Source: a virus (Duplodnaviria > Caudoviricetes). Taken from it: a stretch of DNA of 46,737 nucleotides. Positions within the stretch are counted from its first letter, which is position 1, and the number at the start of each line of letters is the position of its first letter. The stretch spans positions 1 through 46,737 of IMG/VR virus record IMGVR_UViG_3300005512_000062. The stretch is one strand, 5' to 3'. Both the position numbers and the translations under genes were made by a program. Shown piece by piece: positions 13,283-46,737 of the stretch. The notes under the pieces are model-generated. The model saw only the letters and a list, made by a program, of their open reading frames with translations. It had not been told where the DNA came from and did not search any database.

Positions 13283-13283
13283 T

Positions 13284-13883: not shown

Positions 13884-13890
13884 GGGAATT

Positions 13891-21118: not shown

Positions 21119-21129
21119 TAGGAGGAATT

Positions 21130-21267
21130 ATGAGCGGTTATAGAGGTGGATATTCAAATGGGATACCAATAGCAACGGGTCCAACTGGACCAACAGGAAG
21201 CACTGGGGCGACAGGCGCCACCGGAGCGACAGGCGCCACCGGACCAACTGGACCAACTGGACCATAA
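21130..21267 (+). CDS. 45-aa mini-collagen peptide (not in ORF track)
   Basis: AGGAGG SD, ATG 21130. Reads [16 protein letters not shown](GXT)9GP, stop 21265-21267. Confidence 0.8.
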
Positions 21268-21283
21268 AATAGGAGGAAACACA

Positions 21284-21697
21284 ATGGCTAAGAGAAATGA
21301 AGATGTTAACAATTTTGATTTACTGAGAGAAGATGGAGTCCACACAGATCTACCTTGTGGTGGTGTAGGCACTTTCTATACACAGACTTATGTGTGTCCC
21401 AAGGATGTTACCTTTGGGTTTGAGTGGAAGTTTACGTCAAGTGGTGTGATCCTCGCTTCGATAGCCATTGAGCAAGGCAATATTGCTCCGGCTGTTGAAG
21501 GGGCAGCCGATAGCAATATGGTTGTGCCTGATGGTGTGGGGAACTTGGTCACTAATACGGCAGATGCTTTGGTTCACGTTAAACCTTTTGCGCCTACAGT
21601 GGCAAACTTTTTGAGAGTAAGAGTAACTACTGCTGGGGCGAATGACGCTTCAACAGTATTGGAAAGATTTTTAGTAAATACGATAGTCAATGCTTAA
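21284..21697 (+). CDS. Hypothetical beta-rich virion protein
   Basis: AGGAGG SD. 137 aa with jelly-roll-like pattern (NFLRVRVT), inside the fibre cluster. Confidence 0.7.
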   Translation: MAKRNEDVNNFDLLREDGVHTDLPCGGVGTFYTQTYVCPKDVTFGFEWKFTSSGVILASIAIEQGNIAPAVEGAADSNMVVPDGVGNLVTNTADALVHVKPFAPTVANFLRVRVTTAGANDASTVLERFLVNTIVNA

Positions 21698-21721
21698 TTG
21701 ACGGCTTAATAGGAGGATACT

Positions 21722-27778: not shown

Positions 27779-29182
27779 TTAGATTCGAGTTGCCGTACAT
27801 AGAAGGATATAGTCACGGGAAGCTGGGAGTTTGGTATCCCAATGCTTTCCGTTGGTGTTAAACCGAGTGATGCTGGTAATATTCAGCAACTCTCTATACC
27901 TCCATTTGACGATGTTTTCTGTGAACATTCTCACGTGGGAAGGATCATCGAATGAAGGAACAGAAAAAACAACCTCTTTGCCAACCGGTACCTTGCCAAG
28001 GACATCCTTGTCACGAGTCAGGTGTTCCAAGACTTCAAGAAGAACGTATGCATCGTAATCTCCGTAGGCATGGGTGTATATGTCCGCGACTCGATAAGGA
28101 TTGGAGACCATGTCAAAGCCATCGTAATTCTCTATGTACTCACCAAGTTTGCCCTGCCCGCAACCTATATCGAGGGTAGACTTATCCCCCACGATCTTAG
28201 CTACAGCCTTGTAGATATTTTCATATCTCTTATGGGCATCCTCTGGATACTTCTCATAGATCTTCTCATAATAGTCCGCGGTCTTTTCTACCTTCTCCCG
28301 GGTGAAGAGTAGCTTACTATTATCAGCCACCTCTGCCATCCATAGCCAACCTTCTTTATTAGTAGGACCCACCATATTAGCCATAAAGAGGATGGCTTCC
28401 TTGAAGTTGACGTTGATCTTAATAGCCTGGAGACAGGCATCCCGGGCTTCCTCTCCCCTTTGGAGATTCCAAAGCGCCCGTGCCTTCAAAAGGTTAGCAT
28501 CTGCCCTCTCTAATGCCCATTTCCCGTACTTTAGGTGTTCATCTGCCCAGTATAGACAATTAACCCATTCGCCCTTGTAAGAGCATTCTCGCGCGAAATA
28601 ATACATATTTCTAGGGGCTGTGCGGTTAGCTTCAACCTCCTTCTTGAGGATCCTATATGCCCTATTAGGATCTAACTTGTGTGCCGGAGACCACCCAAAC
28701 CTTACTGTTGCCCCTGTGTGGTACTTAGAAGTTACCGATAGATGGTTATGGATGGCTCCCTTCCAATAAACTTCCTTACATTTCCTATATAAGGTAGGTA
28801 TTGAGTGAGAGTTTGCCCCACTTACAGCTATGTAATTGACACCAAAACAGTATTCTTTAGGGTATTTGTCTATTGCTGCTCTTAGCTTCTTCATATCCCC
28901 CTTGGTTAAGGTGTCATCAGCATCGATGGTATAGACCCATTCGTTCTCACACTTAGCCATCGCGTGGTTCCTGGCTCCCGCGAAGTCATCGTTCCACTTG
29001 TAGTCCGTGAAGGACTTGATGTGTGGGTATTTCTTCTTGAGTTCCTCTATCACCTCAAGAGTCTTGTCGATGGAGCCGGTGTCACATATGACGATCTCAT
29101 CAGCATCCTTTACCGATTCGATACAAGCGGGCAACATCTCCTCTTCATTCTTTACTATCATTGCTACACTTATTTTAGCCAT
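27779..29182 (-). CDS. GT2 glycosyltransferase - TPR - class I SAM methyltransferase fusion
   Basis: GT2: MIVKNEE, DTGS.D.T, W.DDFA.ARN, IDADD. TPR helices in the middle. Methyltransferase: LDIGCGQG and EVLEHL...FSVP. Confidence 0.9.
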   Translation of the reverse strand: MAKISVAMIVKNEEEMLPACIESVKDADEIVICDTGSIDKTLEVIEELKKKYPHIKSFTDYKWNDDFAGARNHAMAKCENEWVYTIDADDTLTKGDMKKLRAAIDKYPKEYCFGVNYIAVSGANSHSIPTLYRKCKEVYWKGAIHNHLSVTSKYHTGATVRFGWSPAHKLDPNRAYRILKKEVEANRTAPRNMYYFARECSYKGEWVNCLYWADEHLKYGKWALERADANLLKARALWNLQRGEEARDACLQAIKINVNFKEAILFMANMVGPTNKEGWLWMAEVADNSKLLFTREKVEKTADYYEKIYEKYPEDAHKRYENIYKAVAKIVGDKSTLDIGCGQGKLGEYIENYDGFDMVSNPYRVADIYTHAYGDYDAYVLLEVLEHLTRDKDVLGKVPVGKEVVFSVPSFDDPSHVRMFTENIVKWRYRELLNITSITRFNTNGKHWDTKLPASRDYILLCTATRI

Positions 29183-30305: not shown

Positions 30306-30577
30306 CACCACCCCTTTAGCAGGTGCATAATTAAATAACCCCAAAACAGTATCATTCCTATTATAACGGAACGCACCTGCCATTTCGGAGCCTTCGCTTT
30401 CCATATCCAAAACATTTTTGATATAGTATTCCCGGTAGTCAACTTGGCTATGAGTTCATACGCGCCAAGTAATGACCCCACACATACCCAAAATATAACC
30501 CACCACCATAGCCCAGCTACTGCAAAGGGTACCCCTAGGGTTATTAGAAACACTGCTAGAATCTTTACTGCGTCCAT
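30305..30577 (-). CDS. Small membrane protein
   Basis: Three hydrophobic segments and a TIS..FW motif. Confidence 0.7.
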   Translation of the reverse strand: MDAVKILAVFLITLGVPFAVAGLWWWVIFWVCVGSLLGAYELIAKLTTGNTISKMFWIWKAKAPKWQVRSVIIGMILFWGYLIMHLLKGW

Positions 30578-31788
30578 AACTTTCCTCCAATCGCTGCAAT
30601 CACCTTAGTTGTCACAGCATTACCTAAACATTTGTACCTCTGGGTATCACTTATCCCCTCTGTCCACCCATCCGGAAAGCCCTGAAGTCTCTCACATTCC
30701 GTAGGTGTAAGCCTACGAATCCTCTGCCCATCTGTCAACTTACATCCATTACGGGGTGCTGCGTTGTTGAAGGTAGCACGAACTGTCCCACAATTATCCT
30801 CCTTTCTTATACGACTATTGTAGTCATCATAGCACATCACTCCGTGTTGATCCTGCCCCGTAAGGGTGAAGGATGGCTCACCTTCTTCCTTTATTCTTCT
30901 TCCGTTTTGTCTTTTTTGTAATCGTCCGGGCGTAAGCACGGCACATCCCCGCCTATTTTTAAGGTTCGTGAGGTCTCTGCCTTCATTGGCTTCCTCTCTA
31001 TAAAGTGACTCTTCAAGATCCCTTGCGTCATCTTCTCCGATAGGAAATACTTTGGGTCTACCTGATCCTCTAGTATGTCCGATAATGAACACTCGCTCCC
31101 GGTTTTGAGGAATTCCAAAGAATTTAGTATTAAGTACCTGCCATTCGATATCATACCCAAGGTTGGCAAGGACTTTAAGTATGGTTTGGAAAGTTTGTCC
31201 AGAGTCGTGAGTAAGTAAGCCTTTGACGTTTTCGAGTAGAACACATTGGGGTCTGTGGTGGTCGAGAATCCTTGCGATCTCAAAAAAGAGAGTTCCCCTA
31301 GTGTCATCGAATCCCCTTCGGTAACCGGCAACTGAGAATGCTTGGCAAGGAAATCCTCCAACCAGGAGGTCATGGCTTGGTATGTCTGTGACTTCGATTT
31401 TTGTGATGTCTCCTTCATAGAGTTTGCTCCTTTCGTCCCATCCTCCAGCACCAAAGGCTTTTGATCCCCCCACCCCTGACTGGTCAATGCCGGACATAAT
31501 TTGTTTTTGATTAATTTCTTGTGTAATCTTTGATCCGAAGACTTGACTATGTATTTCATTGTACCCTCCGAAGTTCTTTCTATAGATGGCACTCGCGTAT
31601 TTATCCCACTCGTTGGCGAAGACGCAAGTAAAACCTTCGTGATCTTTCCGTGGTTCTGCCGGACTGTCGGTGCTATCCCCGTTGGGCAATACACATTGTG
31701 ACACTCGTGACCCTTTCCCATATTGAATAGAATTTTCAAGTCCATAACGGAACCCTCCTATGCCCGCGAATAGTTCAATAAACTTCAT
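30565..31788 (-). CDS. DNA (cytosine-5) methyltransferase
   Basis: Motifs I (ELFAGIGG), IV (GGFPCQAFS), VI (ENVKGL), VIII (PQNRERVF), IX (RRLTPTECERLQGFP) and X (LGNAV). Confidence 0.95.
   Translation of the reverse strand: MKFIELFAGIGGFRYGLENSIQYGKGSRVSQCVLPNGDSTDSPAEPRKDHEGFTCVFANEWDKYASAIYRKNFGGYNEIHSQVFGSKITQEINQKQIMSGIDQSGVGGSKAFGAGGWDERSKLYEGDITKIEVTDIPSHDLLVGGFPCQAFSVAGYRRGFDDTRGTLFFEIARILDHHRPQCVLLENVKGLLTHDSGQTFQTILKVLANLGYDIEWQVLNTKFFGIPQNRERVFIIGHTRGSGRPKVFPIGEDDARDLEESLYREEANEGRDLTNLKNRRGCAVLTPGRLQKRQNGRRIKEEGEPSFTLTGQDQHGVMCYDDYNSRIRKEDNCGTVRATFNNAAPRNGCKLTDGQRIRRLTPTECERLQGFPDGWTEGISDTQRYKCLGNAVTTKVIAAIGGKLWTQ
30891..31745 (-). CDS. Overprinted alternative-frame ORF inside the methyltransferase (EcoHK31I-beta-like)
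   Basis: 284 open codons in another frame, containing SLSDILEDQVDPKYFLSEK. Possible SD-led start at ATG 31559 (GGAGGgtacaATG). Confidence 0.65.
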   Translation of the reverse strand: MDLKILFNMGKGHECHNVYCPTGIAPTVRQNHGKITKVLLASSPTSGINTRVPSIERTSEGTMKYIVKSSDQRLHKKLIKNKLCPALTSQGWGDQKPLVLEDGTKGANSMKETSQKSKSQTYQAMTSWLEDFLAKHSQLPVTEGDSMTLGELSFLRSQGFSTTTDPNVFYSKTSKAYLLTTLDKLSKPYLKSLPTLGMISNGRYLILNSLEFLKTGSECSLSDILEDQVDPKYFLSEKMTQGILKSHFIERKPMKAETSRTLKIGGDVPCLRPDDYKKDKTEEE

Positions 31789-35645: not shown

Positions 35646-37354
35646 TATTTTACTCCTTCTTTGGTTAGGAAGTCCGCTACCAACTTGCTTACGGCTTCAT
35701 AGTCCTTGGGTTCAACATCGAACACGTGTTCGTTGTTGGGGTACTTCGCTTTGAACTCACCCTGCAACTTTGCAAAGAGTGCATTCGTCTTCTCAGGATC
35801 CCCACTAAACGATGAGATCTTGTTGGCTGCTTCCTGCATCTCTGTCTGATACCCTTCAGGTGTAAGATCAACCTTTACTTCTTCCTTCTTCTTTGGCTCT
35901 GCCTTCTTCACCGCCGGTTTTGCTTTGGGTTGTGTCGGCTGTGTTTCTGATATCCCTGCCTGAACCCCCTCTGAATACGTTCCTTCGGTTGTGATCACAT
36001 CATCTCGTGCCGCGATCTTCTCCAATGCTACCGCGATTCTTTCTGCCTGTGCATCTGTCATTACTTCCTCCTTCTTTTTTGGATTAAAGTCTAGCCCTAA
36101 CTTATCATCCTTCATTATTGTCTTGATGTTCTTGTCCTTAAACAGAGTGCTACTTAGCACCTGCTCATCCACAGTTCCCTCTACAAGAAGGAACTGAAAT
36201 AGGCAAGGTCTTTTTTGCCCTTCCCTATATAAACGACCAATGGCTTGTTTGATGATCCCTGGGGTGTGGGCTATCTCAACGAATACTGCCATACTCGCCA
36301 CCTGCTGAAGACCATCAATACCTTCACCTGCCGCTTGAATCTGTCCTATGAAAACTCTGCAAGATTTTTCCCCACAAAATTTATCAACTACCTTTTGTCT
36401 GTCTTTACTGGGGGTTGCACCCCGTAATACGACAGGATTAAATTCTCTGAGTGCTTCTTCAAGACCAAGGATAACATCTGTATGGTAAGCAAATACAACA
36501 ACTTTATCCTCCGATTCCAAGATGTTCGTGATGTGTTCGGCACTGGGTACGACTTTCCCAAGACCGATCTTACGTCTAATGGATTCGTTCTCCTCCCCTG
36601 TAAATAAATATTTCTCAATGTCTTTCGAGAAGGGCATATAGATTTTTTGAAGAGACTTGTCCGGTAGGACATCACGCGTTCTCCGTAACATAAACCCTTC
36701 GAGCCTGCCAGAAAGTTCCTCAAGATTTTCTGCTCCATTAGCTTCGTAGCCCCACTTCCCATCTTGCCCATCACAATACCTCCTTGTGTATGCTATGTAA
36801 TTAAGGTAGCCACCTAGCCTTTCAGGGCATAACTTGCTCAACATTGCGTGGAGTTCCACTGGTCTATTGAGAACAGGTGTGGCTGTCATCATCCATCTAT
36901 AAGTCGACAGGTCAGCGTATCCGTTTCGCAGGTACACTGCCTTAGTTCGTTTAGCCTTATGGTTCTTGAGGTAATGTGCTTCATCGCAAATGAGAACATC
37001 ATACGTCCTCTTGAGTAAACTCCGAATGTATCCCTTCCTCCAGCAGAGATCGTAGTTAATGATGAACATCCCTTCCCTTGGCACGGTTTCGATGTTCTTG
37101 TCGTTGAGTATATGTATGTCTCTATCATCGTACCCCCATTTGACTGCTTCCTTCTTCCAGTTATATTTAATACTCGCTGTGCATATCACAAGGATACTCC
37201 TCGCACCTACTTGTTGGCAGGCGTGGATCCCTTGCGCGGTCTTCCCCGTTCCAACGTCATCCGCTAAAAGGGCAGCCCGCGACCTTGCCAAGAAATCCAC
37301 ACCCTGACGTTGGAAATCATATAGCTGCTCGTATGTGTCGTTAACTATTCTCAT
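35645..37354 (-). CDS. SNF2-family helicase with in-frame C-terminal extension
   Basis: LYDFQ, DDVGTGKT, DEAH, TATP, GEGID and QAIGRLYR.GQ motifs. Confidence 0.92.
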   Translation of the reverse strand: MRIVNDTYEQLYDFQRQGVDFLARSRAALLADDVGTGKTAQGIHACQQVGARSILVICTASIKYNWKKEAVKWGYDDRDIHILNDKNIETVPREGMFIINYDLCWRKGYIRSLLKRTYDVLICDEAHYLKNHKAKRTKAVYLRNGYADLSTYRWMMTATPVLNRPVELHAMLSKLCPERLGGYLNYIAYTRRYCDGQDGKWGYEANGAENLEELSGRLEGFMLRRTRDVLPDKSLQKIYMPFSKDIEKYLFTGEENESIRRKIGLGKVVPSAEHITNILESEDKVVVFAYHTDVILGLEEALREFNPVVLRGATPSKDRQKVVDKFCGEKSCRVFIGQIQAAGEGIDGLQQVASMAVFVEIAHTPGIIKQAIGRLYREGQKRPCLFQFLLVEGTVDEQVLSSTLFKDKNIKTIMKDDKLGLDFNPKKKEEVMTDAQAERIAVALEKIAARDDVITTEGTYSEGVQAGISETQPTQPKAKPAVKKAEPKKKEEVKVDLTPEGYQTEMQEAANKISSFSGDPEKTNALFAKLQGEFKAKYPNNEHVFDVEPKDYEAVSKLVADFLTKEGVK

Positions 37355-38034
37355 TTCACCACCTTAAAAGGATCCTTGAGTTTGGTTCTCTTGTATTCTG
37401 GGTCGATCCCAAATCTCACCATCTGATTGTGCTTACGACAAGCCTTCCTAAAGGTCTTGATCTGCTCTTCTGTCCAATGGACTGGCTCGATGTTAGGACT
37501 TATCTGATTATCGAACCAACAATCAGCTACCTTTGTACCCCATACCTTGCATAGATCTAACTTCATACAGTTCTCTTCGTAGGGTGTGAGCCAATTGCAC
37601 ACCATAAAAACTGTGATGTCGTGTGGCTTATACCCTGCTGCAAGGAGAGTTTTGACTGTGGCTTTGATGTTTTTCTGAAGATGGAAACCAAAGTCCCATG
37701 CCATACGGATAGTCTTGAACCTTGATTGTCGCATAGCCACAGCCAATTCCGGGGTAAGCACTCTCCAATCGATCCCACATATAAACTCATATTGGATCAC
37801 CTTATTATTGACCTTTCTCCTACCCAACTCTTGAATGATCTCAAGGGCTTCGGGCTTACATAAGAGATTCATATCCATAATCTTTACAACATTTCTCACG
37901 AGTTCGGGGATCTCATACACCTCGTACTCTGTGGGTTCGTAACAGAAAGGACAATTATTGGGGCATCCCTGGGATAGCCTTATCCATTGCTCTTTCTCAT
38001 CGAACTTGTTGTAGGGTCCATATGAATACTTCAC
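37351..38034 (-). CDS. Radical SAM domain protein
   Basis: SQGCPNNCPFC (CxxxCxxC), plus D.NLL, GID.R and RMAWD core motifs. Confidence 0.85.
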   Translation of the reverse strand: MKYSYGPYNKFDEKEQWIRLSQGCPNNCPFCYEPTEYEVYEIPELVRNVVKIMDMNLLCKPEALEIIQELGRRKVNNKVIQYEFICGIDWRVLTPELAVAMRQSRFKTIRMAWDFGFHLQKNIKATVKTLLAAGYKPHDITVFMVCNWLTPYEENCMKLDLCKVWGTKVADCWFDNQISPNIEPVHWTEEQIKTFRKACRKHNQMVRFGIDPEYKRTKLKDPFKVVK

Positions 38035-40100
38035 TCTGCTTCCACCTTCTTTACTCTAGTGTACTTGAGACCCTCAAGAGTCTGTCTCTTTATCCACCCA
38101 AGATTCTTGAGCGACAAGGCGATCCTTCTTTGGTGTCCTGTGTGCATACCCTGGACATTCCCACCTAATACGTTCCTATATAGGTGTTGGGTCGATACAT
38201 CGATGACCTCTGGGTTACTTGCTGCCCATTCGGCAATGATCCACTGCCAAGGATCGTCAGCGAGTCTCTTCATAGCTTCGACTTCACTTTCCTTGATGAG
38301 TTCATAAGGAAGCATCAAGGTCTCACCCTTTTTGTAGGCAGCAACTGCTTCAGCTAATAGTTGTTCCCTATCTCTTTTCAATACTTCTAATTCGAAATGG
38401 TCACAGAACACAGGCCAAAAGCGTCTATTACCCGTAGTATCTGTAAGGTAACCGACATCGTCGGGGTTGATTGTCCCAATGAATATGCACTGCCGGGGGA
38501 ATCGTTGTCTTGCTCTTGCGTAGGGTAAGCGTACGTCATCTTCTCTCCTTGATATAAAATTCTTGAGTCTGTCTGATTCTGTTTTCCTCGTGGTGATCAT
38601 CTCTGACATCTCGACCACCCACTTGGAGTGTATATAAGGAATGCAGTCCTTATCTTGGGGATCGATAGGTGCATCACCATACCACTCACCACCTAGGATC
38701 TCACAAGTGGTACTCTTACCTATGCCTTGCGCTCCCTCAAGTACAAGAACATAATCGAACTTGCACCCTGGACTATAGACTCGCGCAATCATAGCCACAA
38801 GTACCTTCCTACCCATCTGTCTATTAAGGGGATTGTTGGCGGCACCACAATATTTTTCCAACCAAGTGTCGATCCTCTCGACCCCATCCCACTTGTATGT
38901 CTCTAATACGTCCTTAATAGGATGATAAACATTTCCTGCCGCCACTAGGTCGACAGCCTTCCACATTGTCTGGCTACTAAATTCTACATTATGTGTATGA
39001 GCCAAGTGCAGTCTTATGCACTCAATCTCTCGATCATCTATGGCATTGTATCTATTGATACGATCTTTTTCCCAAGGGATATTGCCCTTTATCTCTAGTC
39101 TCTCATTGAAAGCATTGTAAATAAACATACCTTTTATGCCTAATTCGTGCTTTAACAGAAGATGCGCGTTCTTTAGCGTCGTTTTAAGGGCATTATTTTT
39201 TGTATACTCAAGCTTTTTCATCCATTTGTTAGGATCTTTTTTAGCTATGTCCGGGAGTACAACTTTAGGATCTCGTGTTCCGGCGGGTGCTTCGTTGTAG
39301 TTATATGCATTGGCTACCTTCCTCTGGAGTTCCATGTTCTCCCACATAGGCTTACACTTGGGATTATAATGCTTGAGCATTAATTGAAAAGTCTTTTGCA
39401 TCGAGAGGTTATAGTCCCTACCACGACAAGCTACCTTAAATGTAGTCTTATCTCCATTCTCACCCTCGATGGCCAATGGCGCGAGTTTCTCAAGATAGTC
39501 TGTATACCTATCGATGTTATCTTGGGAGTCACTAAAGCCTGGATGGTTAACCTCACCAAGATCCACAACCTTCCTCTTTATAAGGTTGAGAAGACCACCT
39601 GGGGCTTGGATGTCAACAAAGGGAGGAGTCAGAAAAGTATAGGGATTGCCTAATACTTGTGACCCAGCACCTATGACATAAGCACCTTCCGATAAGAAGT
39701 CCACTCCAGGAAATTCTTTGAGGTTCTTTCGAATTGCAAATTCAGGTGGCTTCCTCAAGTATATATGAAGCCCGCCCCCACCAGTTCGTACAATTGTGGC
39801 TGAAGTTTCGATATCCTGAAGAGTCGATACTTGTTGCTTGATCTCCGACCATACCGATCTACCCTTCATATTGCGAGGATCGAGGTCGATGACAAGATCG
39901 TCTGCCTTCAACCTCACACCAAACTGTCCGTAAGGATATTTCATTATGTTCGGAGCAACATCAACTATCGCACTCTTCCAACCAAAGCCATTGGCTGGTT
40001 TCTTTTCTTCAGTCGTTGCAAAAGTAGCGTACCCCGCCTGGGCGTATGTCTCAACGCATTTAATCAGCGTTGAAGGGATTTCCGCTAGTTTCTTTTGCAT
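38031..40100 (-). CDS. Prim-Pol primase fused to VirE/VapE-like helicase
   Basis: VIDLDPRN and TGGGGLHIY (Prim-Pol). EGAQGIGKST, RLPYAR, GTIN and DTTGNRRFWP (VirE). Confidence 0.92.
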   Translation of the reverse strand: MQKKLAEIPSTLIKCVETYAQAGYATFATTEEKKPANGFGWKSAIVDVAPNIMKYPYGQFGVRLKADDLVIDLDPRNMKGRSVWSEIKQQVSTLQDIETSATIVRTGGGGLHIYLRKPPEFAIRKNLKEFPGVDFLSEGAYVIGAGSQVLGNPYTFLTPPFVDIQAPGGLLNLIKRKVVDLGEVNHPGFSDSQDNIDRYTDYLEKLAPLAIEGENGDKTTFKVACRGRDYNLSMQKTFQLMLKHYNPKCKPMWENMELQRKVANAYNYNEAPAGTRDPKVVLPDIAKKDPNKWMKKLEYTKNNALKTTLKNAHLLLKHELGIKGMFIYNAFNERLEIKGNIPWEKDRINRYNAIDDREIECIRLHLAHTHNVEFSSQTMWKAVDLVAAGNVYHPIKDVLETYKWDGVERIDTWLEKYCGAANNPLNRQMGRKVLVAMIARVYSPGCKFDYVLVLEGAQGIGKSTTCEILGGEWYGDAPIDPQDKDCIPYIHSKWVVEMSEMITTRKTESDRLKNFISRREDDVRLPYARARQRFPRQCIFIGTINPDDVGYLTDTTGNRRFWPVFCDHFELEVLKRDREQLLAEAVAAYKKGETLMLPYELIKESEVEAMKRLADDPWQWIIAEWAASNPEVIDVSTQHLYRNVLGGNVQGMHTGHQRRIALSLKNLGWIKRQTLEGLKYTRVKKVEAE

Positions 40101-40269
40101 GGCGTTTTGCTCCTTCTATAAAGTTGTCAATGTCCTCTTTAAGGAATCTCTTTCTCGATCCCACCTGATAGTACGTTAGCTTACCTTGACGGCAATACCG
40201 GTTGATTGTCACCGGATGCACTCCTAGAAGTTCTGCCACTTGCCTTATGTTTAGGAAGTCTTGCATCAT
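40060..40269 (-). CDS. Excisionase-like helix-turn-helix (HTH_17) DNA-binding protein
   Basis: FLNIRQVAELLGVHPVTINRYCRQGKL...VGSRKRF, with GGAGGTG SD. Confidence 0.88.
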   Translation of the reverse strand: MMQDFLNIRQVAELLGVHPVTINRYCRQGKLTYYQVGSRKRFLKEDIDNFIEGAKRHAKETSGNPFNAD

Positions 40270-40402
40270 TTTGATTCACCTCCTTCTTGATTTTAAAGTT
40301 ATTTCGTCTACACCAATTATCAATTTGTTCTTTTAAGTCTCCCATAAGAGTCCTCCTGTTGCAATCACATCTAAATTCTTTCTTACACACATAGCACTGC
40401 AT
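40181..40402 (-). CDS. Small Cys-rich hypothetical protein
   Basis: TAATG-coupled start at 40402, MQCYVCKKEFRCDC. The 3' part overlaps the HTH gene. Confidence 0.5.
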   Translation of the reverse strand: MQCYVCKKEFRCDCNRRTLMGDLKEQIDNWCRRNNFKIKKEVNQNDARLPKHKASGRTSRSASGDNQPVLPSR

Positions 40403-41541
40403 TATTTTGTCCCATGTGCGTGGGCTGGGTTGCCATACCATTTCTCGCCTGCCGGGATGTCTTTGGTGACAACAGATCCTGCACCTACCAAAGCACCCTC
40501 TCCCACGACAACCCCAGGGAGAACAATCGAACCCATACCTATGACAGCACCTTTCTTAATGAGGATCTTGCCCCATTCCTTTTGTGATGAAGGTGGGTAC
40601 TTGTCGTTTGAGAATGTCACCTTTGGCGCGATAAAACAATCGTCCTCGATGGTCACTCCTTCGGGAATGAAAGTCATAGCACCAATTCTTACGTTATTTC
40701 CTATGATGACATTGTGTCCTATCTCACAGCCACCACCTATATTACATCCCTTGCCTATCTTCGCGGTCTTGTATATGTTGCAATTGCCCCATACTTTGGT
40801 GTTCCTTCCTATAGTATAAGCATCCTTTAGCAGTGGCGTGTCTACGCCTTGATCCAATAGGATCGCCATATCCTCGACGGTACAATGCCCACCTATAAAA
40901 TTATCGAAAGGCCAAAGTAGTGGTTGGATGAGTTTTAAACTATCTCCACCAAGTTTTTGAAGTCCCTGGGTCCTCGTATTCTCGAAATCTGTCACAGCTT
41001 TATGGTATGACACCCCAAATTTCTCACAAATAGCTTCCTGCTCCTTGGCAAATGCTATGTAAACACCATATCTTGATAATGCCAATAGCTTTGCGAGTTC
41101 GGTTGTCTTCGTATCCGGCGTGGTTTTGCACTCGATTCCAGCCTTAAAGAAATAGTTCGAGATCTCCGTGGCTGCATAGTGTTCATTACCATCGAAGGAC
41201 AAATACTTCACATATGCCCTCAATCCCTCTTCCATATTGGGATGTTTTCCTCTCACAGGTGAGTGAAAAGCCACTCCATCAAGCTTTGCTGTCGTGCCAA
41301 CCGGCACACTTGAGTGATTTACAACATATTTTGGGGTGCATATGCTCATATAATCGTTCACGATCTCAACAAAATCCTCACACCAGGGGATGCAAATGTG
41401 AAGAATGTCCACTTTTGGTAGCTTATCCTTATCTTCGCCACTCTTTGCATCATACCCATATACCTTCTTCTTGTACTTGTCCTTGAGTACATTATGCAAT
41501 GCACTCCCAATCTCACCTAACCCTACGACCATCGTTTTCAT
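40402..41541 (-). CDS. Nucleotide-sugar 6-dehydrogenase-like domain fused to hexapeptide-repeat acyltransferase
   Basis: VVGLGEIG Rossmann motif, ICIP, SSVPVGT, HSPVRG, TTELAKL and GGHC. Then left-handed beta-helix repeats, FIPEGVTIEDDCFIAP..TFSNDKYP, GAGSVVTKD and GNPA. Confidence 0.88.
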   Translation of the reverse strand: MKTMVVGLGEIGSALHNVLKDKYKKKVYGYDAKSGEDKDKLPKVDILHICIPWCEDFVEIVNDYMSICTPKYVVNHSSVPVGTTAKLDGVAFHSPVRGKHPNMEEGLRAYVKYLSFDGNEHYAATEISNYFFKAGIECKTTPDTKTTELAKLLALSRYGVYIAFAKEQEAICEKFGVSYHKAVTDFENTRTQGLQKLGGDSLKLIQPLLWPFDNFIGGHCTVEDMAILLDQGVDTPLLKDAYTIGRNTKVWGNCNIYKTAKIGKGCNIGGGCEIGHNVIIGNNVRIGAMTFIPEGVTIEDDCFIAPKVTFSNDKYPPSSQKEWGKILIKKGAVIGMGSIVLPGVVVGEGALVGAGSVVTKDIPAGEKWYGNPAHAHGTK

Positions 41542-41996
41542 CTTTCCTCCTTTAAGAAATATTTGACATTTTTCAGCCAATTTTTATTAAGCCCTTTGGG
41601 ATCGTTGTCAGCCCCAATGGGACAGTACCTCGATGCTAGGAATTCAAGATAAGTGTCGTAGGTCTTGTGTCCATAGTCTGCGTATCTCTTCCTATTATTC
41701 CTCACTGTATTAAAACAAATTCTTCGTGCTTCCTGGGGATCGTCATATTTTATAGATCGAATCCCATACAAATATGTGGCTTTAGAGCCGCCTTCGGCTT
41801 TATAGATAGCATTCACGATCTCTTCGTCAGAATAAGCCTTTGCTTGATGCTCCTGGTTCCAGTGCTTTATAGCCGCGAAACCTTGAGCATTCGCACCGGT
41901 TGTCACGAAAAGAGATGGTAAAAGTATCATTATGATTAGTTTTGTGTTTTTCATAGTGTTTTGTGTGGCTTGGATAGTGAATGCTCTGAATGTCAT
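41538..41996 (-). CDS. Lysozyme-like cell-wall hydrolase with signal peptide (candidate endolysin); start 41996 or 41954
   Basis: MKNTKLIIMILLPSLFVTTGANA signal-like sequence, AIYKAEGG with a putative catalytic Glu, and the RYCPIGADNDPKGLNKNW.KNV motif seen in lysozyme-like/glucosaminidase proteins. Confidence 0.7.
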   Translation of the reverse strand: MTFRAFTIQATQNTMKNTKLIIMILLPSLFVTTGANAQGFAAIKHWNQEHQAKAYSDEEIVNAIYKAEGGSKATYLYGIRSIKYDDPQEARRICFNTVRNNRKRYADYGHKTYDTYLEFLASRYCPIGADNDPKGLNKNWLKNVKYFLKEER

Positions 41997-42003
41997 TAAG
42001 TAC

Positions 42004-42037
42004 AAATATACACTACCCAAGCCACTTTGTCAAATTT
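42004..42037 (-). promoter_or_regulatory. Sigma70-type promoter, conserved motif copy 3
   Basis: Minus strand TTGACA (42033-42028), 17 bp spacer, TATATT (42010-42005), with the same flanks as copies 1 and 2. Confidence 0.8.
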
Positions 42038-42255
42038 TATTTATATTGATCCTTTAATTTATCGATAGGATCAAGTTCAAACTCACGCCTTTCCTCGTTC
42101 ACCTCCTCCAGGGTCATTCGTTTGTGTTCCATCAAGCCATAGAATCCACAATCCAAGCAAGTACACGAAAAATTCATATGCTTGAGATCTTCTGACACCA
42201 TTAATTCTTCGCTGCCACACTTTGGGCATTTATCACTATAACTTGAGCCACTCAT
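42037..42255 (-). CDS. Zinc-ribbon microprotein
   Basis: CPKC...CLDC, with AAGGAGG SD. Confidence 0.75.
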   Translation of the reverse strand: MSGSSYSDKCPKCGSEELMVSEDLKHMNFSCTCLDCGFYGLMEHKRMTLEEVNEERREFELDPIDKLKDQYK

Positions 42256-42452
42256 TTTTCATCCTCCTTGTCTATTGACATTATTGTATATCCATCCACT
42301 CCTATGCCATCGAAGAGTCCTTGAATATAGAAATCAATCTCACTTTGTGTCTCATACTCAATCTCTTCGATGGTGGCATTCTCATTAATAGTGCCAAACT
42401 CCTCGTACTCTTTGACACTTTCCTCACCTATCATTATTTTAGCTTTCATCAT
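42252..42452 (-). CDS. Small highly acidic protein
   Basis: AAGGAGG SD. 18 D/E versus 5 K and no R in 66 aa. Confidence 0.75.
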   Translation of the reverse strand: MMKAKIMIGEESVKEYEEFGTINENATIEEIEYETQSEIDFYIQGLFDGIGVDGYTIMSIDKEDEK

Positions 42453-42675
42453 CCTCCTTGTCGATGAGTTCGAGACTCACCAATTTGCAGCCATTCTTTA
42501 ATTTCTTTTCGCCTAGGATCTTGACATCAAAATCCTTTTTCTTTTTCCTTTCTTCCCTTTTCTCTTTCTTTCTCAATTCTTTCATCCCCGGACAACAAGC
42601 ATTCGCGTCATCCCTATGGTCATAGTCTTGTCCACAATGACCACATATCCAATGAACTACTTTTTCGGCATCCAT
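42439..42675 (-). CDS. Small Cys-containing basic protein
   Basis: GGAGGTGA SD before ATG 42675. WICGHCG...DANACC followed by a Lys/Glu tract. Confidence 0.7.
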   Translation of the reverse strand: MDAEKVVHWICGHCGQDYDHRDDANACCPGMKELRKKEKREERKKKKDFDVKILGEKKLKNGCKLVSLELIDKEDDES

Positions 42676-42676
42676 A

Positions 42677-42991
42677 TTACTCACCTCCCTTCAAAGCTTT
42701 TTGCACCCATTCGACCACATCACTCGTCTTACCACCTATGTGCCAATCTCTCACATCCTCGACATCCACGATATCTTTCCAATCATAGATGGTAGCAACT
42801 CCACTTGGTGTGTTTATCACCCATTCACATCTTACCTTGAGGTCATCCCCAAAGCCATTAGGCTCACCAAATACCTCGACAAGCCTTTCATAAGACTCAT
42901 CGATTGAGCCTTTGAGACTCGTGCCATTGGCACTTGTCGATGGGATGTGGTTGACCATCCCTCTCACATCGATATTAATTATCTTTTCCAT
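42677..42991 (-). CDS. Conserved phage hypothetical protein
   Basis: AAGGAGG SD. TSLKG...Y..LVEVFGEP...KV..EW...ATIYDWK...WHIGG pattern familiar from uncharacterised phage proteins. Confidence 0.8.
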   Translation of the reverse strand: MEKIINIDVRGMVNHIPSTSANGTSLKGSIDESYERLVEVFGEPNGFGDDLKVRCEWVINTPSGVATIYDWKDIVDVEDVRDWHIGGKTSDVVEWVQKALKGGE

Positions 42992-43022
42992 ACTTCCTCC
43001 TTTTGTTATATTACTTCCTATA

Positions 43023-43223
43023 TTAGCACCACTCACCACAAGCACCATTCATTGGTATCTCGTAGGTATTGAACTCGACCATTAGTTCGTCACTATATGG
43101 ACGAGCCATTCCTTTGTTAAACTTTTTGATGGCAGCAATTGCCTTTTCTTTGGTTTCGCCAATGCCAAAGATCCTATCACTCGTGTCGATGGCAATAGCA
43201 AGTATCAACTTTTTCTTTTTCAT
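43023..43223 (-). CDS. Hypothetical early protein
   Basis: AAGGAGG SD, 66 aa, IFGIGETKEKA segment. Confidence 0.7.
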   Translation of the reverse strand: MKKKKLILAIAIDTSDRIFGIGETKEKAIAAIKKFNKGMARPYSDELMVEFNTYEIPMNGACGEWC

Positions 43224-43249
43224 AGCCATTCCTCCTTGTTTTATCATTT

Positions 43250-43312
43250 TTCACGCGATTTCCCAGGGATCCGGGAAATTCCAGGCTCTACAATCCATTG
43301 TAAGCCACGATC
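43250..43312 (-). ncRNA. Candidate structured intergenic RNA (two hairpins)
   Basis: Minus strand GGCU-UACAA-UGGA-UUGUA-G-AGCC and AUUUCCCGG-AUCC-CUGGGAAAU. The G-U pair forms only on the minus strand. Confidence 0.5.
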
Positions 43313-43322
43313 TCGTCCTTAC

Positions 43323-43487
43323 CTATACCTTGACCTTCACTCTTTTGTTCTTGTCGAGAAAGATCCTATAGCAATCACTACATACTATCTTGTCACCAAT
43401 TCGATACCTCATATTGAGGACTCGACCACATCCACAATATTCCTTCCTCTCGTGTGTGACTCTTCCACCATATGTAAACCTCTTCAC
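43323..43487 (-). CDS. 54-aa zinc-finger microprotein (not in ORF track)
   Basis: GGGAGGT SD, GTG start. MKRFTYGGRVTHERKEYCGCGRVLNMRYRIGDKIVCSDCYRIFLDKNKRVKVKV. Confidence 0.7.
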   Translation of the reverse strand: MKRFTYGGRVTHERKEYCGCGRVLNMRYRIGDKIVCSDCYRIFLDKNKRVKVKV

Positions 43488-43502
43488 TTCGACCACCTCC
43501 CT

Positions 43503-43570
43503 TGGTTATGGTGAGACTTTGGACTCACCTTGTGGTTTACATCCCTCTTACGAGGGATGCCATCACCATT
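43503..43570 (-). ncRNA. Repeated two-hairpin cis-RNA motif, copy A
   Basis: AAUGGUGAUG-GCAUCCCUC-GUAA-GAGGGAUGU-AAACCACAA-GGUGAG-UCCAAAGU-CUCACC-AUAACCAA. Covaries with copy B. Confidence 0.75.
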
Positions 43571-43869
43571 TAAAGTTCACTATAGAAGGAATGTCCAAAT
43601 GTCTCTCGACATTCCTTGCATAGCACATCCTTATCAAGTGAGCCATTAGGACTCCCACAATACTTGCACTTGTTACCTCTTGAGACATCGATTCCCTTGA
43701 TACGAGCCACGAATTCACGATAGTCTTCCATCTTATTAGGGATGATGCTCTTGCACTCATCACAATAATCTAGTCTCAAGTTCTTATTGCCTTTGACACT
43801 ATAATATTTGTTGCACTTGGTTAATTTGTCCTTGCTCAAACACACATCACACACTAATACTTTTGCCAT
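43570..43869 (-). CDS. Double zinc-finger small protein
   Basis: Four CxxC motifs, AAGGTGA SD before ATG 43869. Confidence 0.75.
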   Translation of the reverse strand: MAKVLVCDVCLSKDKLTKCNKYYSVKGNKNLRLDYCDECKSIIPNKMEDYREFVARIKGIDVSRGNKCKYCGSPNGSLDKDVLCKECRETFGHSFYSEL

Positions 43870-43870
43870 C

Positions 43871-44122
43871 TTACTCACCTTCCTTCTTGGGTTGATTCAT
43901 TATGTCCTCTTGGAGACTCGTGATATCCTCGAATATGTGTCCTTTCACATCTTCACCATTAGCTAGACGATGTCCATAATCCTTACCTTCCTCGTACTCG
44001 TTATAGTCTATGAGTCTTTGCAATGCATCCTTGCTTACAAGTACCCTTGGCTCTTCCTTGATACGATAAGCATCCCTTCTTTCCTCGATCTCCTTCATTT
44101 GTTCCTTGTCATAACCATCCAT
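43871..44122 (-). CDS. Acidic hypothetical early protein
   Basis: AAGGAGG SD before ATG 44122, 83 aa. Confidence 0.75.
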   Translation of the reverse strand: MDGYDKEQMKEIEERRDAYRIKEEPRVLVSKDALQRLIDYNEYEEGKDYGHRLANGEDVKGHIFEDITSLQEDIMNQPKKEGE

Positions 44123-44133
44123 TTTATCCTCCT

Positions 44134-44571
44134 TTATAGTAGTTCGTCCAAACACCACTCTTGGATAAGGCATAGAATAGCCTTACCAAGTTCGTCTCTA
44201 CCAAATTGATATTCACTTCTCTCTATGCAAATGGATATCCTATCCTCGTACAACTCAAGAAAACATCCAATGTCAAAATAGATAATGGTGATGTCTTCTT
44301 TTATCTCGTCAATATCCAATGCACTTATTTCCTCGATCCTATCCCTATCCTTCACGAACTCCATTTTACCTAATGCACCAAGGATATTATCATTCACGAT
44401 GTAATAATATTCCTTGCCACAATATGCACACCACACCTTGACCAAGTTCTCATTCCTTGATGTCGAACCTTGGTTTTCCATATGTGTCTCATTGCAATGA
44501 GGACATATGTGTGCATTAGCATCCTTGACTCTTGGTGTGGGATCGACTACTTTCCCATTAAGTCTTTCCAT
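44134..44571 (-). CDS. Zinc-ribbon plus acidic domain hypothetical protein
   Basis: GGGAGG SD. CPHC...CAYC, then an acidic C-terminal half. Confidence 0.75.
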   Translation of the reverse strand: MERLNGKVVDPTPRVKDANAHICPHCNETHMENQGSTSRNENLVKVWCAYCGKEYYYIVNDNILGALGKMEFVKDRDRIEEISALDIDEIKEDITIIYFDIGCFLELYEDRISICIERSEYQFGRDELGKAILCLIQEWCLDELL

Positions 44572-44586
44572 TTTAACCTCCCTTGT

Positions 44587-44660
44587 TTGGTTGTGTGGAG
44601 ACTTTGGACTCCACTCGTGGTTTACATCCCTTCCTATATAGAAGGGATGCCATCACCATT
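44587..44660 (-). ncRNA. Repeated two-hairpin cis-RNA motif, copy B
   Basis: AAUGGUGAUG-GCAUCCCUUC-UAUAUAG-GAAGGGAUGU-AAACCACGA-GUGGAG-UCCAAAGU-CUCCAC-ACAACCAA. Confidence 0.75.
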
Positions 44661-44892
44661 AGCATTCACTTGGAATCATTTTGAACTCATTCCACATCAC
44701 ATCGTCCATTTGTCTCGTGGTGATATTCTCGATGCTATATCCTTGACGATTGACACCATCAATCACGAGCCTTTCACACTCGTCAAGATCCTTGAAGTCA
44801 CCACACCTTGTGTAGCTATCCTTCAAGTCACAAGTTGCTATTGTCACTACATTGTTTTTCATAAAGTCAAATATCATTTGTTTAGCTACCAT
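44659..44892 (-). CDS. Hypothetical early protein
   Basis: Repeated initiation region GGTGATTGAGATG, ATG 44892. Confidence 0.7.
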   Translation of the reverse strand: MVAKQMIFDFMKNNVVTIATCDLKDSYTRCGDFKDLDECERLVIDGVNRQGYSIENITTRQMDDVMWNEFKMIPSEC

Positions 44893-44909
44893 CTCAATCA
44901 CCATCCTTT

Positions 44910-45131
44910 TTAGTTGTACATCAACTTGACAAGTTTATCTCCAACAACTCTATTTATCTCTTGGTATGCCATCTCCCAAATATCGTACCATTCACTTGGG
45001 ATATCTTTTCTCATACGATTCGTGAACTCTTGGTGGTTGAACATATAGAATTCACTTTTGGTGATATCATAGTTCTTTTGCACCATAGCTTGTAACTTTT
45101 TGATTTTAATTTTACCTATTGACCTTGCCAT
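44910..45131 (-). CDS. Hypothetical early protein
   Basis: AAGGAAGGTGAT SD, 73 aa. Confidence 0.75.
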   Translation of the reverse strand: MARSIGKIKIKKLQAMVQKNYDITKSEFYMFNHQEFTNRMRKDIPSEWYDIWEMAYQEINRVVGDKLVKLMYN

Positions 45132-45147
45132 TTTACATCACCTTCCT

Positions 45148-45324
45148 TTATTTAAAATATACTTTGCCTATTGTATTGCCATTTATGTCACTTAAAAACT
45201 CACTAGCATTATTGTCATTCTCAATCTCATTAGCTAGTTTTTTTAAGATCCTAGCTATTTCACTTGTGTTATGCATTGCATCATTTAGCAATGACATTTT
45301 TATTACCATCTCTTTAGCTACCAT
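45148..45324 (-). CDS. Conserved small phage hypothetical protein
   Basis: EIARILKKLA...LSDINGNTIG pattern common in phage early genes, ATG 45324. Confidence 0.75.
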   Translation of the reverse strand: MVAKEMVIKMSLLNDAMHNTSEIARILKKLANEIENDNNASEFLSDINGNTIGKVYFK

Positions 45325-45339
45325 CTCAATCACCTTCCT

Positions 45340-45600
45340 TTACATTACCTTGTCATTAATTAATTTCATTGCCCAATGTATACCATAACTATCTCCACCA
45401 AGTCTTATCAAGCCTTGAGCCATCCCTAGCATAAAAGCCTTGTCATTAGCATAAGGTTTTAAAACTTGAACCCACTTGGCATAATTACCTTTAGTAGTTT
45501 TTATGCCATTCTCTATTGACTCGACAAGCTTTTTACAATCCCCATCACTAGCAATTGCACTTGCTACCTTCTCCAAATAGTCACTTAATTTTTTGTCCAT
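45340..45600 (-). CDS. Hypothetical early protein
   Basis: AAGGAAGGTGAT SD before ATG 45600. Confidence 0.75.
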   Translation of the reverse strand: MDKKLSDYLEKVASAIASDGDCKKLVESIENGIKTTKGNYAKWVQVLKPYANDKAFMLGMAQGLIRLGGDSYGIHWAMKLINDKVM

Positions 45601-45618
45601 CTCAATCACCTTCCTTTT

Positions 45619-46200
45619 TTAGTGTGCTAAAATTTGAATTTCAATACCTCTTGCCACCTTGCAAAGTGTACACTTTGTACAATCACCTTTACAATATATT
45701 TTGCTTGTCACCTTGTCCACAACTTGAAATTGATTGCATAGCATAAAGCCACTACCATTTACACAAAAACAAGTACCATCAAAGTCCAAGTCTTTTCTTG
45801 CACTATAGGTATATGTTTTTATATTGCAATTGTCCAATAAATACCTTGCCACAATATCAAGTTTTTCAATATCCATTTGTGTGGCAAAGTCACCACTTTC
45901 ATTTATTCGTAGGTATTCAATTTTTGTCCTCATTCTCTTGACTCTTGATTCAATATCTTTTGCAATCTCCAAGCCATTATATTTTGCCCATTGTGTGGCT
46001 TGTCTTCTTCTATATGGTAGCACTTGAGGGTATTGTCTTTCACTCTTCTTGGCATAGCATATTTTAGAATGTCCACACAAGCCAAGTTTATCACTTGGAC
46101 AATCAAATGCACTTGACATATTGAATACTAGAGTATTCTTGCCCACTTTTGGATTCTTATTGTGGCACTCAATTTTAGGATCTTCTTTTTTCTTCTTCAC
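45619..46200 (-). CDS. GP88-like Cys-rich protein, first early gene
   Basis: N.KVG...FNM....CP...C....CYAKK, RINESGDF, YTY and C.GDC..C..C motifs. GGAGGTG SD before GTG 46200. Confidence 0.75.
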   Translation of the reverse strand: MKKKKEDPKIECHNKNPKVGKNTLVFNMSSAFDCPSDKLGLCGHSKICYAKKSERQYPQVLPYRRRQATQWAKYNGLEIAKDIESRVKRMRTKIEYLRINESGDFATQMDIEKLDIVARYLLDNCNIKTYTYSARKDLDFDGTCFCVNGSGFMLCNQFQVVDKVTSKIYCKGDCTKCTLCKVARGIEIQILAH

Positions 46201-46248
46201 TTTTACACCTCCATTTTTGTTGTACTTTGTAAATATATGTCTAATTAA

Positions 46249-46288
46249 AGTATAATGATATATTAACATATGTCAAGGAAAGTGTCAA
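46249..46288 (-). promoter_or_regulatory. Tandem early sigma70-type promoters
   Basis: TTGACA (46288-46283), 17 bp, TAATAT; and TTGACA (46276-46271), 16 bp, TATACT. Both upstream of the first early gene. Confidence 0.7.
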
Positions 46289-46510
46289 TAATAATGTTAT
46301 GTCTTTATTGTGTCATTCTATAATGATTGAGCTTGAGAAGTATATAAAGTTTTGAGATATATTTTTTATAGGTATATAGGGTATAGTGTGGAGTTTTAAA
46401 GCTTGGAGATCTTTTATGCATCGTGGAAAGTTTTGAGAACTCATACACACACATTATAGAATGACACTTTTAAAACAAATAGATCACCATCATAGAATGT
46501 TACAATTGAA

Positions 46511-46628
46511 ACACACATAATGTGTGTGTGGATCTACACACCTTGACACCTTGCCACACCTTGACACCTTGCCACATATACCACACATTGTGTGGTATGC
46601 TGCATAATGATACAAGCCTTGTATCATT
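46511..46628. repeat. Cluster of perfect palindromes and ACACCTTG direct repeats
   Basis: Inverted repeats at 46511-46527, 46578-46598 and 46606-46628; tandem 18-mer ACACCTTGACACCTTGCC x2 at 46538-46573. Confidence 0.85.
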
Positions 46629-46668
46629 CAAGTGGTGCATAGTGTGGTGAGCCGGCTTTTTGGAATTC

Positions 46669-46737
46669 CTAACACCCCCACCCCCCTGGAAAAACTGCCG
46701 GGGCGAACCCTCCACCTGGGGGCGCGGGCGAATAAAA
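46669..46737. repeat. Terminal direct repeat, right copy
   Basis: Identical to 1-69. Confidence 0.95.

Follow-up and report, generated by a model that had tools for sequence, protein, structure and literature searches.

A 3.3-kb early-gene block purged of CNG trinucleotides at one end of a podovirus genome

The window analyzed here is the whole of IMG/VR record IMGVR_UViG_3300005512_000062 (46,737 nt), the complete-looking 46.7-kb genome of an uncultured podovirus, and near its right-hand end, at positions 43,285 to 46,599, lies a block from which every CNG trinucleotide is missing. Direct counts over both strands gave zero for CAG, CTG, CCG and CGG, and likewise for GCG and CGC; the bounding sites are a CAG at 43,282 on the inner edge and a CTG at 46,600 on the outer edge, and the second-longest CNG gap of the genome is 467 nt. 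Exact counting thereby confirmed a sequence-only reading of this DNA, which had reported from a line-by-line scan that CNG, GCG/CGC, CATG and GGCC were absent and that CpG occurred only in TCGT, TCGA or ACGA. All 42 CpG of the block are indeed in these contexts (17, 13 and 12, respectively), and GATC (11), AGCT (10), GTAC (9) and TCGA (13) are retained, as had also been noted. Further words with a count of zero are CATG, GGCC, ACGT, CTNAG, GGNCC, GCNNGC, GGNNCC, CGNNCG and GCN7GC. CATG and GGCC are scarce throughout the genome (gaps of 6.8 and 6.4 kb, in which 5.9 and 8.5 sites would be expected), and little weight therefore attaches to their being missing here; expectations in the block are also small for ACGT, CTNAG, GGNCC, GCNNGC, GGNNCC and CGNNCG. 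We argue below that the block probably reflects positional selection by a host DNA defence on the leading DNA of the phage.

Null models showed how far the block departs from chance. From its own composition (37% GC, against 45%), 104.9 CNG sites are expected and 5,000 shuffles never gave fewer than 74, in line with the many tens of sites that the sequence-only reading had estimated. When the block's own codons were reshuffled with each protein held fixed (n = 1,000), CNG still appeared with a mean of 34 and a minimum of 21, and GCG/CGC with a mean of 20 and a minimum of 11, against zero observed for both; codons containing CNG are already excluded in this model, and the 34 sites arise at codon junctions. 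The earlier statement that codon usage does not explain the gap was therefore upheld. About 105 CNG and 39 GCG/CGC sites are missing from the block, and CAC/GTG, CAA/TTG and CCA/TGG are enriched there 1.7- to 2.1-fold. In a further 229 loci that we fetched (2.6 Mb in all, with overlap and redundancy), the longest CNG gap was 597 nt, in DNA of 23% GC. An independent contig (L115) matches positions 39,716 to 46,340 of the window with one mismatch in 6,625 nt, which creates no CNG. Manual-scan error, composition and codon usage are ruled out by the computed counts and the two kinds of shuffle, and an assembly artefact by the agreement of L115.

The CNG purge is the product of selection on double-stranded DNA, and it reaches both amino-acid choice and untranscribed DNA. 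The banned word set is closed under reverse complement, the purge holds across codon boundaries, and the 283 nt upstream of the early promoters contain no CNG against 8.3 expected. The strand-limited depletion expected from avoidance of a MazF-type mRNA interferase was not seen, as both strands and untranscribed DNA are purged. At the protein level, when the residue after Ala, Thr or Pro is Val, Ala, Asp, Glu or Gly, a CNG is unavoidable under any codon choice; such dipeptides are entirely missing from the 873 residues of the nine block proteins (shuffle mean 26, minimum 12, n = 5,000), a pattern that must mean that all four CNG words are disfavoured. Serine before a codon starting with G is encoded by AGY in 20 of 20 cases, and TCN is used 12 times in other contexts. 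The cost extends to conserved positions of the GP88 family protein encoded by the first gene: at position 134, 26 of 31 homologues have Thr-Ala and the window phage has an AGT-coded serine (Ser-Ala), and at position 54, 26 of 31 have Ala-Glu or Pro-Glu and the window phage again has an AGT-coded serine (Ser-Glu). Across 118 GP88 homologues, forcing pairs average 9.5, and the only protein with none is a 97%-identical sister (P0121).

We compared word frequencies with those of orthologues in up to four complete relatives, and on this evidence what had been described as one CNG word separates more convincingly into two signals of different range, CWG on the one hand and CG next to C or G on the other. 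The selective, DNA-level, positional purge of a very short target that the sequence-only reading proposed was borne out; the single word was not. For CWG, the ratios lie between 0.65 and 1.6 (mostly at least 0.85) through position 41,954 and collapse only in the first operon, and CWG frequency is normal in conserved genes leftward of a second promoter at 42,005 to 42,033. For CCG/CGG and GCG/CGC together, the ratio declines along the genome, being 1.2 at the left end, about 0.65 in late genes, 0.3–0.5 in most replication genes, about 0.3 adjoining the block and 0 within it (Spearman −0.72 over 22 genes, −0.68 without GP88). Within the first operon the purge fades gradually. The outer part of the block (45,030–46,599; 1,570 nt) is also nearly free of CpG (3 against 41 expected), and longer palindromes are missing over 3.8–10.5 kb from this end of the genome.

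On the inner side lies a transition block (41,600–43,284) in which CNG is sparse, as had been noticed before, and only 16 CWG survive. Thirteen of the 16 are in palindromic 5-mers (CCWGG, GCWGC, TCWGA, ACWGT), compared with 26% genome-wide; the enrichment (p 6e-6, best run elsewhere in the genome 10 of 16) was calculated for a boundary picked after seeing the data. That palindromic CWG survive longest is the direction opposite to ordinary Type II avoidance. In the block itself all XCNGY classes are gone, including the non-palindromic ones, though 75% of CNG genome-wide have non-palindromic flanks; a missing-word pattern of mostly palindromic words of 4–8 bases was found only for CATG, GGCC, CTNAG, GGNCC and similar sites. 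Other words are avoided over the whole genome of the window phage: GAGGC/GCCTC occurs once against 40 expected, GAGCT/AGCTC four times (three against 32 expected within the first 40 kb), CATG has a ratio of 0.2, and GGCC, CTNAG and GCNNGC are depleted as well. GAGGC and AGCTC are likely targets of host systems. At the inner edge of the block, a 33-nt intergenic cluster (43,254–43,286) holds CGCG, two CCAGG, GGATCC and CCGG in a short inverted repeat, and with five otherwise banned sites it resembles a natural polylinker.

The block covers the outer part of the first operon. Its nine small minus-strand open reading frames (ORFs) stand behind three tandem sigma-70-like promoters (46,249–46,316, minus strand; consensus matches only, 10–11 of 12) that point into the block, and transcription is predicted from these to run inward from one end. 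The first gene (45,619–46,203, minus strand; PF17338) encodes the GP88 family protein, predicted as a radical-SAM-like partial barrel (pLDDT 93.6) with seven invariant cysteines. Its modelled fold appears nearest to radical SAM enzymes, the best structural match being QueE at a score below the tool's reliable level (Z 7.1, root-mean-square deviation 4.3, 145 aligned), and Foldseek found no match in the PDB at E 0.001; nothing links the radical SAM gene to DNA modification, for which the sequence-only reading had brought in a radical SAM enzyme. The eight other ORFs of the block (57–145 amino acids; 43,323–45,603, minus strand) have no reliable family, the 145-residue product having none in Atlas, and from their position they are candidate host-takeover or anti-defence genes. 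Five more small ORFs (42,037–43,226, minus strand) end the first operon; one of these, at 42,037–42,255 and outside the block, shows a similarity, below the cut-off, to the Lar restriction-alleviation zinc ribbon (TIGR03655, E 1e-4, 22.4 bits, cut-off 39.6). The second sigma-70-like promoter, on the minus strand, follows. A 34-nt promoter-like sequence at 42,004–42,037 is 79% identical to one at 6,845–6,878, the two driving the second early operon and the capsid gene in opposite directions.

Beyond the early promoters, short tandem repeats (46,537–46,576, plus strand; periods 8 and 18) precede a 69-nt terminal repeat (46,669–46,737, plus strand) that is identical to positions 1–69 and holds a GC-rich element. 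Together, repeat and element are likely a packaging or terminus region. The element is conserved among relatives: in 11 of 21 terminase loci a pattern search detected it upstream of the head-packaging genes, and by eye it was recognized in L033 and G005; the carriers are the window, L015, L016, L017, L019, L025, L029, L033, G001, G002, G005 and G006. It sits 1.3–2.1 kb upstream of terL, often flanked by lineage-specific short tandem repeats. Eight of the 21 terminase loci, not all of them independent, start 1.36–1.84 kb upstream of terL and thus near the element; such starts fit a fixed end, yet the repeats could equally break assemblies.

The sequence-only reading had proposed the same test in related genomes, and there it was palindromes, in G005 and L017, that proved to be purged, with no triplet purge in any relative. 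No comparable CNG gap was found in G001, G002, G005, G006, L017 or L019, the longest in the four complete ones being 165–259 nt. In L017 (positions 1–5,038), GCNGC, CTNAG, GGCC and GGNCC total 0 against 64 over 5,039 nt in an early block that reaches and passes the terminal element, and in G005 (35,680–39,693), CCGG, CGCG, GCGC, GGCC, GATC, CCNGG and CGNCG total 0 against 77 over 4,013 nt. All relatives but G002 also have near-genome-wide bans of their own (CTAG, CCAGC and GATGC in G001; GGNCC in G005 and G006), and CNG is normal even in relatives with as many as eight palindromes purged. Only two block genes have homologues in the fetched loci, GP88 (43% identical to G005) and one ORF (35% to L050). 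A search of viral contigs with GP88 alone yielded no close relative of the block. None of the 63 GP88 loci found by alignment is CNG-free, nor is either of two loci found by a repeated ribosome-binding motif.

As to the host, there is a weak hint of Omnitrophota. A close relative (83% in terL; L116 and G010 contigs C11, C37, C60 and C78) was binned in a Candidatus Omnitrophota metagenome-assembled genome, and a distant 38.7-kb podophage (G284:C13; L235, L237) that shares one gene with the window (41,538–41,954, 74%) was found in a second. The genome of the latter podophage is nearly devoid of CATG, GATC and GTAC. A terminase search of the genome collection gave one match. For the glycosyltransferase of the window phage, G010 alone gave a match at E 1e-30, and a search for the early region of the phage in G010 did not locate it. 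Thirteen of 401 Omnitrophota genomes match the right-hand 20 kb, with two candidates scored per genome, and none of 12 inspected loci (L174–L185) lies in a repeat array; a spacer match was thus not seen. In 201 sampled Omnitrophota genomes, C5 methyltransferases were found in 55 and Mrr-type nuclease domains in 19; DndC was over cut-off in none, and Ssp was not searched for. Variable loci of Omnitrophota are described as commonly carrying Type I and III restriction-modification (RM) genes (bioRxiv 10.64898/2026.06.07.730766).

Given the data that the purge is local, acts on DNA and lies at one end, we consider positional selection by a host DNA defence on leading DNA to be the likely explanation. 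The full version, in which that defence has an unmethylated three-base target, we put at a little short of an even chance. In this full version, the block would be the first DNA into the cell, entering from the right with a fixed virion end at the terminal element. A host defence would read a three-base cytosine word, CNG together with CG beside C or G, and would most likely be blocked by cytosine methylation. Host RNA polymerase would transcribe the first operon and pull the DNA inward as in T7, and the defence would next be put out of action by at least one protein of the first operon; the 2,100 CNG sites further in would be tolerated because this proposed inhibitor would already have acted. 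Ordinary Type II sites (CATG, GGCC, CTNAG, GGNCC) would be avoided in addition, and palindromic CNG may have been the last to go because they were already covered by host methyltransferases or by the phage's own methyltransferase, whose target-recognition domains (TRDs) appear to be several. Polar entry would agree with the place of the block, next to tandem early promoters and a conserved terminal element, and with the inward course of the gradient. Local motif depletion relative to the rest of the genome and small early-type genes behind host-type promoters, both features of leading regions, are present. From position, gradient and T7/T5 precedent we infer that the DNA enters from the right, that transcription helps to pull it in and that the nine genes include one for an inhibitor; possible staged entry is hinted at by the gradient and by likely ejection proteins. 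The latter are the products of three genes behind the tubular tail genes (13,269–20,177, plus strand; 204, 604 and 1,490 residues), the first of which matches an internal virion protein family and the 1,490-residue product of which was assigned no family by Atlas. With rather less confidence, we also entertain an undescribed defence of an uncultured bacterium, possibly of Omnitrophota, that would use plant-like CG and CWG contexts as self/non-self marks and attack unmethylated CNG, the phage answering with a triplet-free leading operon, recoded even at conserved residues and carrying an inhibitor, and with a two-polypeptide methyltransferase shielding palindromic CNG.

Several observations weigh against selection on leading DNA by such a defence. 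Among the 618 specificities that we tested against the block there is no modification-blocked nuclease with a CNG target, and such a nuclease would be hazardous to its own host; the host itself is uncertain. The purged block of G005 sits some way inward, about 4.5 kb from the terminal element and behind the second promoter, and the outer early operon (41–43.5 kb) has 52% GC and is palindrome-rich; from this position, "first to enter" is no simple account of every family member. G001 and G006 have no clear purge and G002 has a weak one. The first-operon genes are nearly without orthologues in relatives, so in-place loss of CWG is not demonstrable, and the boundary of the transition block was chosen post hoc as stated above. 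Searches of Pfam, PHROGs, NCBIfam and PADLOC gave no reliable match between a block gene and an anti-defence family, and neither an injection-stop signal nor a phage RNA polymerase was found. Finally, the terminal 138 nt (46,600–46,737) hold nine CNG and five GCG/CGC. The 69-nt repeat may be no more than overlapping ends of the assembly; if it is genuine, these sites would be the first into the cell. The CNG among them lie upstream of the promoters and in a constrained element, but the favoured reading does not account for them.

The main rival is the mirror image of the favoured reading. The phage would methylate CNG and CG in its own virion DNA, host Type IV or IIM nucleases would attack the methylated DNA, and the leading DNA would have to go without methylatable sites until an inhibitor was made. 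The candidate enzyme is an orphan C5 cytosine methyltransferase (30,565–31,788, minus strand; PF00145) with a PC motif and two TRD-like modules, overlapped in another frame by a 284-residue ORF (30,891–31,745, minus strand; PHROG 16143) with three more, the five modules having been called by our own pattern scan. This second ORF belongs to a methyltransferase-labelled family, is 37% identical to its counterpart in L174 (a phage-like contig of G216) and is likely a second subunit; the small subunit of M.EcoHK31I is likewise read from an alternative frame. At the level of sequence, catalytic motifs, several TRD-like modules and an overlapping ORF are all present, as in multispecific or two-polypeptide C5 methyltransferases.

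Self-methylation would shield the bulk of the genome from Type II enzymes, and the motifs purged genome-wide (GAGGC, AGCTC, CATG) contain no CNG and so would not be shielded. The phage bearing the purge is also alone in having the methyltransferase, which is in none of the four complete relatives, none of them with a triplet purge; this correlation, however, amounts to one genome. Modification-dependent enzymes with 2–4-base specificities exist (PMC3874153), and the Mrr-type domains of the sampled Omnitrophota could supply the attacker. Against this, CWG is not depleted beyond the first operon, palindromes, the usual best targets of methyltransferases, survive longest, and each of five TRDs would need unusual degeneracy to cover every flank. 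No C-to-T excess was seen in the window lineage (CWG 5/76 vs 5/76, CG beside C or G 4/83 vs 3/83), a comparison of low power, and substitution spectra against relatives of 55–80% identity were uninformative, probably through saturation. An argument for recent arrival of the methyltransferase from its normal CCG/CGG count (29 vs 31) was dropped, as the gene is dual-coding. Self-methylation by the phage, which the sequence-only reading had offered as its second option, is thus weakened by the CWG and C-to-T data and keeps in its favour that, among the complete relatives, only this phage has the enzyme; we regard it as unlikely, at roughly a one-in-five level of belief.

A less probable account dispenses with a three-base reader altogether, and holds that many host restriction systems with 4–6-base sites containing CNG or CG have jointly erased the triplets. 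The motif bans peculiar to each relative make it clear that this family faces many RM systems, and the RM cargo of Omnitrophota loci agrees with this. Of the known sites no longer than 5 bases, 71 are missing from the block; together they cover 92% of CSG, and the CG layer may be of that kind. The same sites cover only 69% of CWG; extending the list to the 258 absent sites of up to 6 bases, which makes it circular, raises this to 87%, leaving 13–31% of CWG uncovered. Moreover, 74 known 4–5-base sites without CNG are still present in the block, the last CWG survivors are classical Type II palindromes, and relatives that purge up to eight palindromes have normal CNG. We therefore doubt that such a union made the block.

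It is very unlikely that the first operon was acquired as a module from a wholly CNG-free element and that its position in the genome is incidental. The near privacy of the nine genes, the coincidence of the CWG drop with the operon boundary and the lower GC content of the block would all suit an acquired module. Genes inherited vertically nevertheless take part in the gradient of CG beside C or G, which runs toward this same end, the purge tapers off within the operon, no CNG-free DNA was found in the 229 other loci (the 63 GP88 loci included), and a donor would need to have been under identical selection. Least probable of all, to the point of being negligible, are causes other than defence (mutation by deamination, codons adapted to fast translation, escape from a toxin that cuts mRNA, assembly artefact): the excess of CAC/GTG, CAA/TTG and CCA/TGG is what C-to-T loss would give, and there are publications on plasmid leading regions with adapted codons (PMC13478746) and on RNA phages that avoid the trinucleotide target of MazF (PMC12151602), but these causes are already contradicted by the codon reshuffle, by the independent contig, by a banned set that is closed under reverse complement, spans codon boundaries and includes untranscribed DNA, and by the serine and dipeptide data, in which the TCN-to-AGY switch takes two changes and follows context in 20 of 20 cases.

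The remainder of the genome is that of a podovirus only distantly related to annotated phages, whose closest terminases are less than 39% identical. Pfam and PHROGs matches include a terminase, a T7-like portal, tubular tail proteins, an internal virion protein and DNA polymerase A, and further an SNF2 helicase, a VapE primase-helicase and the C5 methyltransferase; Rfam gave no match. A glycosyltransferase (GT2; 27,779–29,182), a NeuD-like sugar acetyltransferase (40,402–41,580) and, among the head genes, a GNAT acetyltransferase (3,033–3,470) could possibly serve virion or surface modification. Fibre proteins with collagen repeats, several in number, and one protein that has four LamG domains are encoded at 8,016–9,041, 20,177–24,007 and 24,022–26,646.

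The target word is well defined by the sequence, while enzyme, host and entry mode are inferred. A complete three-base purge means either a target far shorter than any modification-blocked site found or an unusually broad cytosine methylation of the virion, and in either case, if true, the enzyme activity would be new; work on CHG methylation would gain a useful tool from a nuclease or methyltransferase specific for CNG. The sequence itself supplies the target motif and nine candidate inhibitor genes, which makes the question directly testable, and the forced-dipeptide test could detect similar phages from protein sequence alone.

Known systems resemble the window phage in part. For T5-like phages, restriction sites are reported to be lethal in the terminal early-gene block and tolerated further in (PMC10644984); the first-step-transfer DNA of T5/BF23 (Tequintavirus) is likewise a terminal early-gene block. 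Unlike T5/BF23, the window phage is a podovirus, its assembly has only a 69-nt repeat rather than one of ~10 kb with pre-early genes (though a longer repeat may have collapsed in assembly), and no sharp injection-stop edge was found; its banned words are of 3 bases with a graded edge, in contrast to the 6-base or bipartite sites described for T5-type phages. Position-dependent restriction of leading DNA has also been shown for the T7-like Murciavirus, against the Type I system Mme2I (PMC12455610). The window phage shares with such phages the podovirus type, a T7-like portal, tubular tail and likely ejection proteins, tandem host-type promoters at one end, hypervariable early genes and position-dependent site avoidance. 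Murciavirus avoids one rare bipartite motif, however, whereas about 105 CNG and 39 GCG/CGC are missing here, with amino-acid replacements. The window phage differs from Autographiviridae in having no match to a single-subunit RNA polymerase, or to any RNA polymerase family, among its 53 proteins (Pfam, PHROGs).

As regards restriction enzymes, the genome-wide avoidance of orthodox Type II sites by lytic phages is described as strong and that of Type IV sites as weak (PMC6286503), and the genome-wide depletion of CATG, GGCC, CTNAG, GCNNGC, GAGGC and AGCTC in the window resembles the former. Orthodox Type II avoidance does not look like the triplet purge, which is local, covers all non-palindromic flanks and loses palindromes last. 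The MspJI family and SauUSI, with the targets mCNNR, CmCDG, VmCW and SmCNGS (PMC3874153, PMC6286503), are in these sources the only well-described nucleases with 2–4-base cytosine targets, and CCDG and SCNGS are nested in the banned set. No target of theirs equals CNG, though, and the block holds 436 CNNR, 635 VCW, 59 CCDS and 46 YSCNS; of 13 listed specificities with less than 4 bases of information, only CCDG, nested in CNG, is absent. These enzymes moreover require methylated DNA. Phosphorothioate systems are reported with the 3-base motif C*CA and, in gut metagenomes, C*AG (PMC11931770), and the latter, read on either strand, equals the CWG layer. The CG layer would be left unexplained, DndC was not detected in the 201 Omnitrophota genomes (Ssp, again, was outside the search), and we found no report of phages purging phosphorothioate 3-base motifs. 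For the methyltransferase, the multi-TRD enzymes of Bacillus phages and the two-polypeptide M.EcoHK31I and M.AquI (PMC8936443, PMC3404938) offer parallels in an orphan phage C5 enzyme, several TRD-like modules and an overlapping second ORF; unlike in those, the modules of the window phage are split between two ORFs.

Other cases of word avoidance are further removed. Plasmid leading regions are reported not to be consistently palindrome-depleted (PMC13478746), and RNA phages avoid the three-base target of MazF (PMC12151602). The term "CNG" did not turn up in a term search of a 2025 review of restriction-modification (PMC12707154), and in the literature searched, mostly without subscription papers and supplements, we found no triplet-level purge of phage early DNA. 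Site-free leading regions are already known, but for rare sites of 4–8 bases. The block described here is a real, extreme and selective feature, and its three-base target, together with its cost at conserved amino acids, sets it apart from those known regions.

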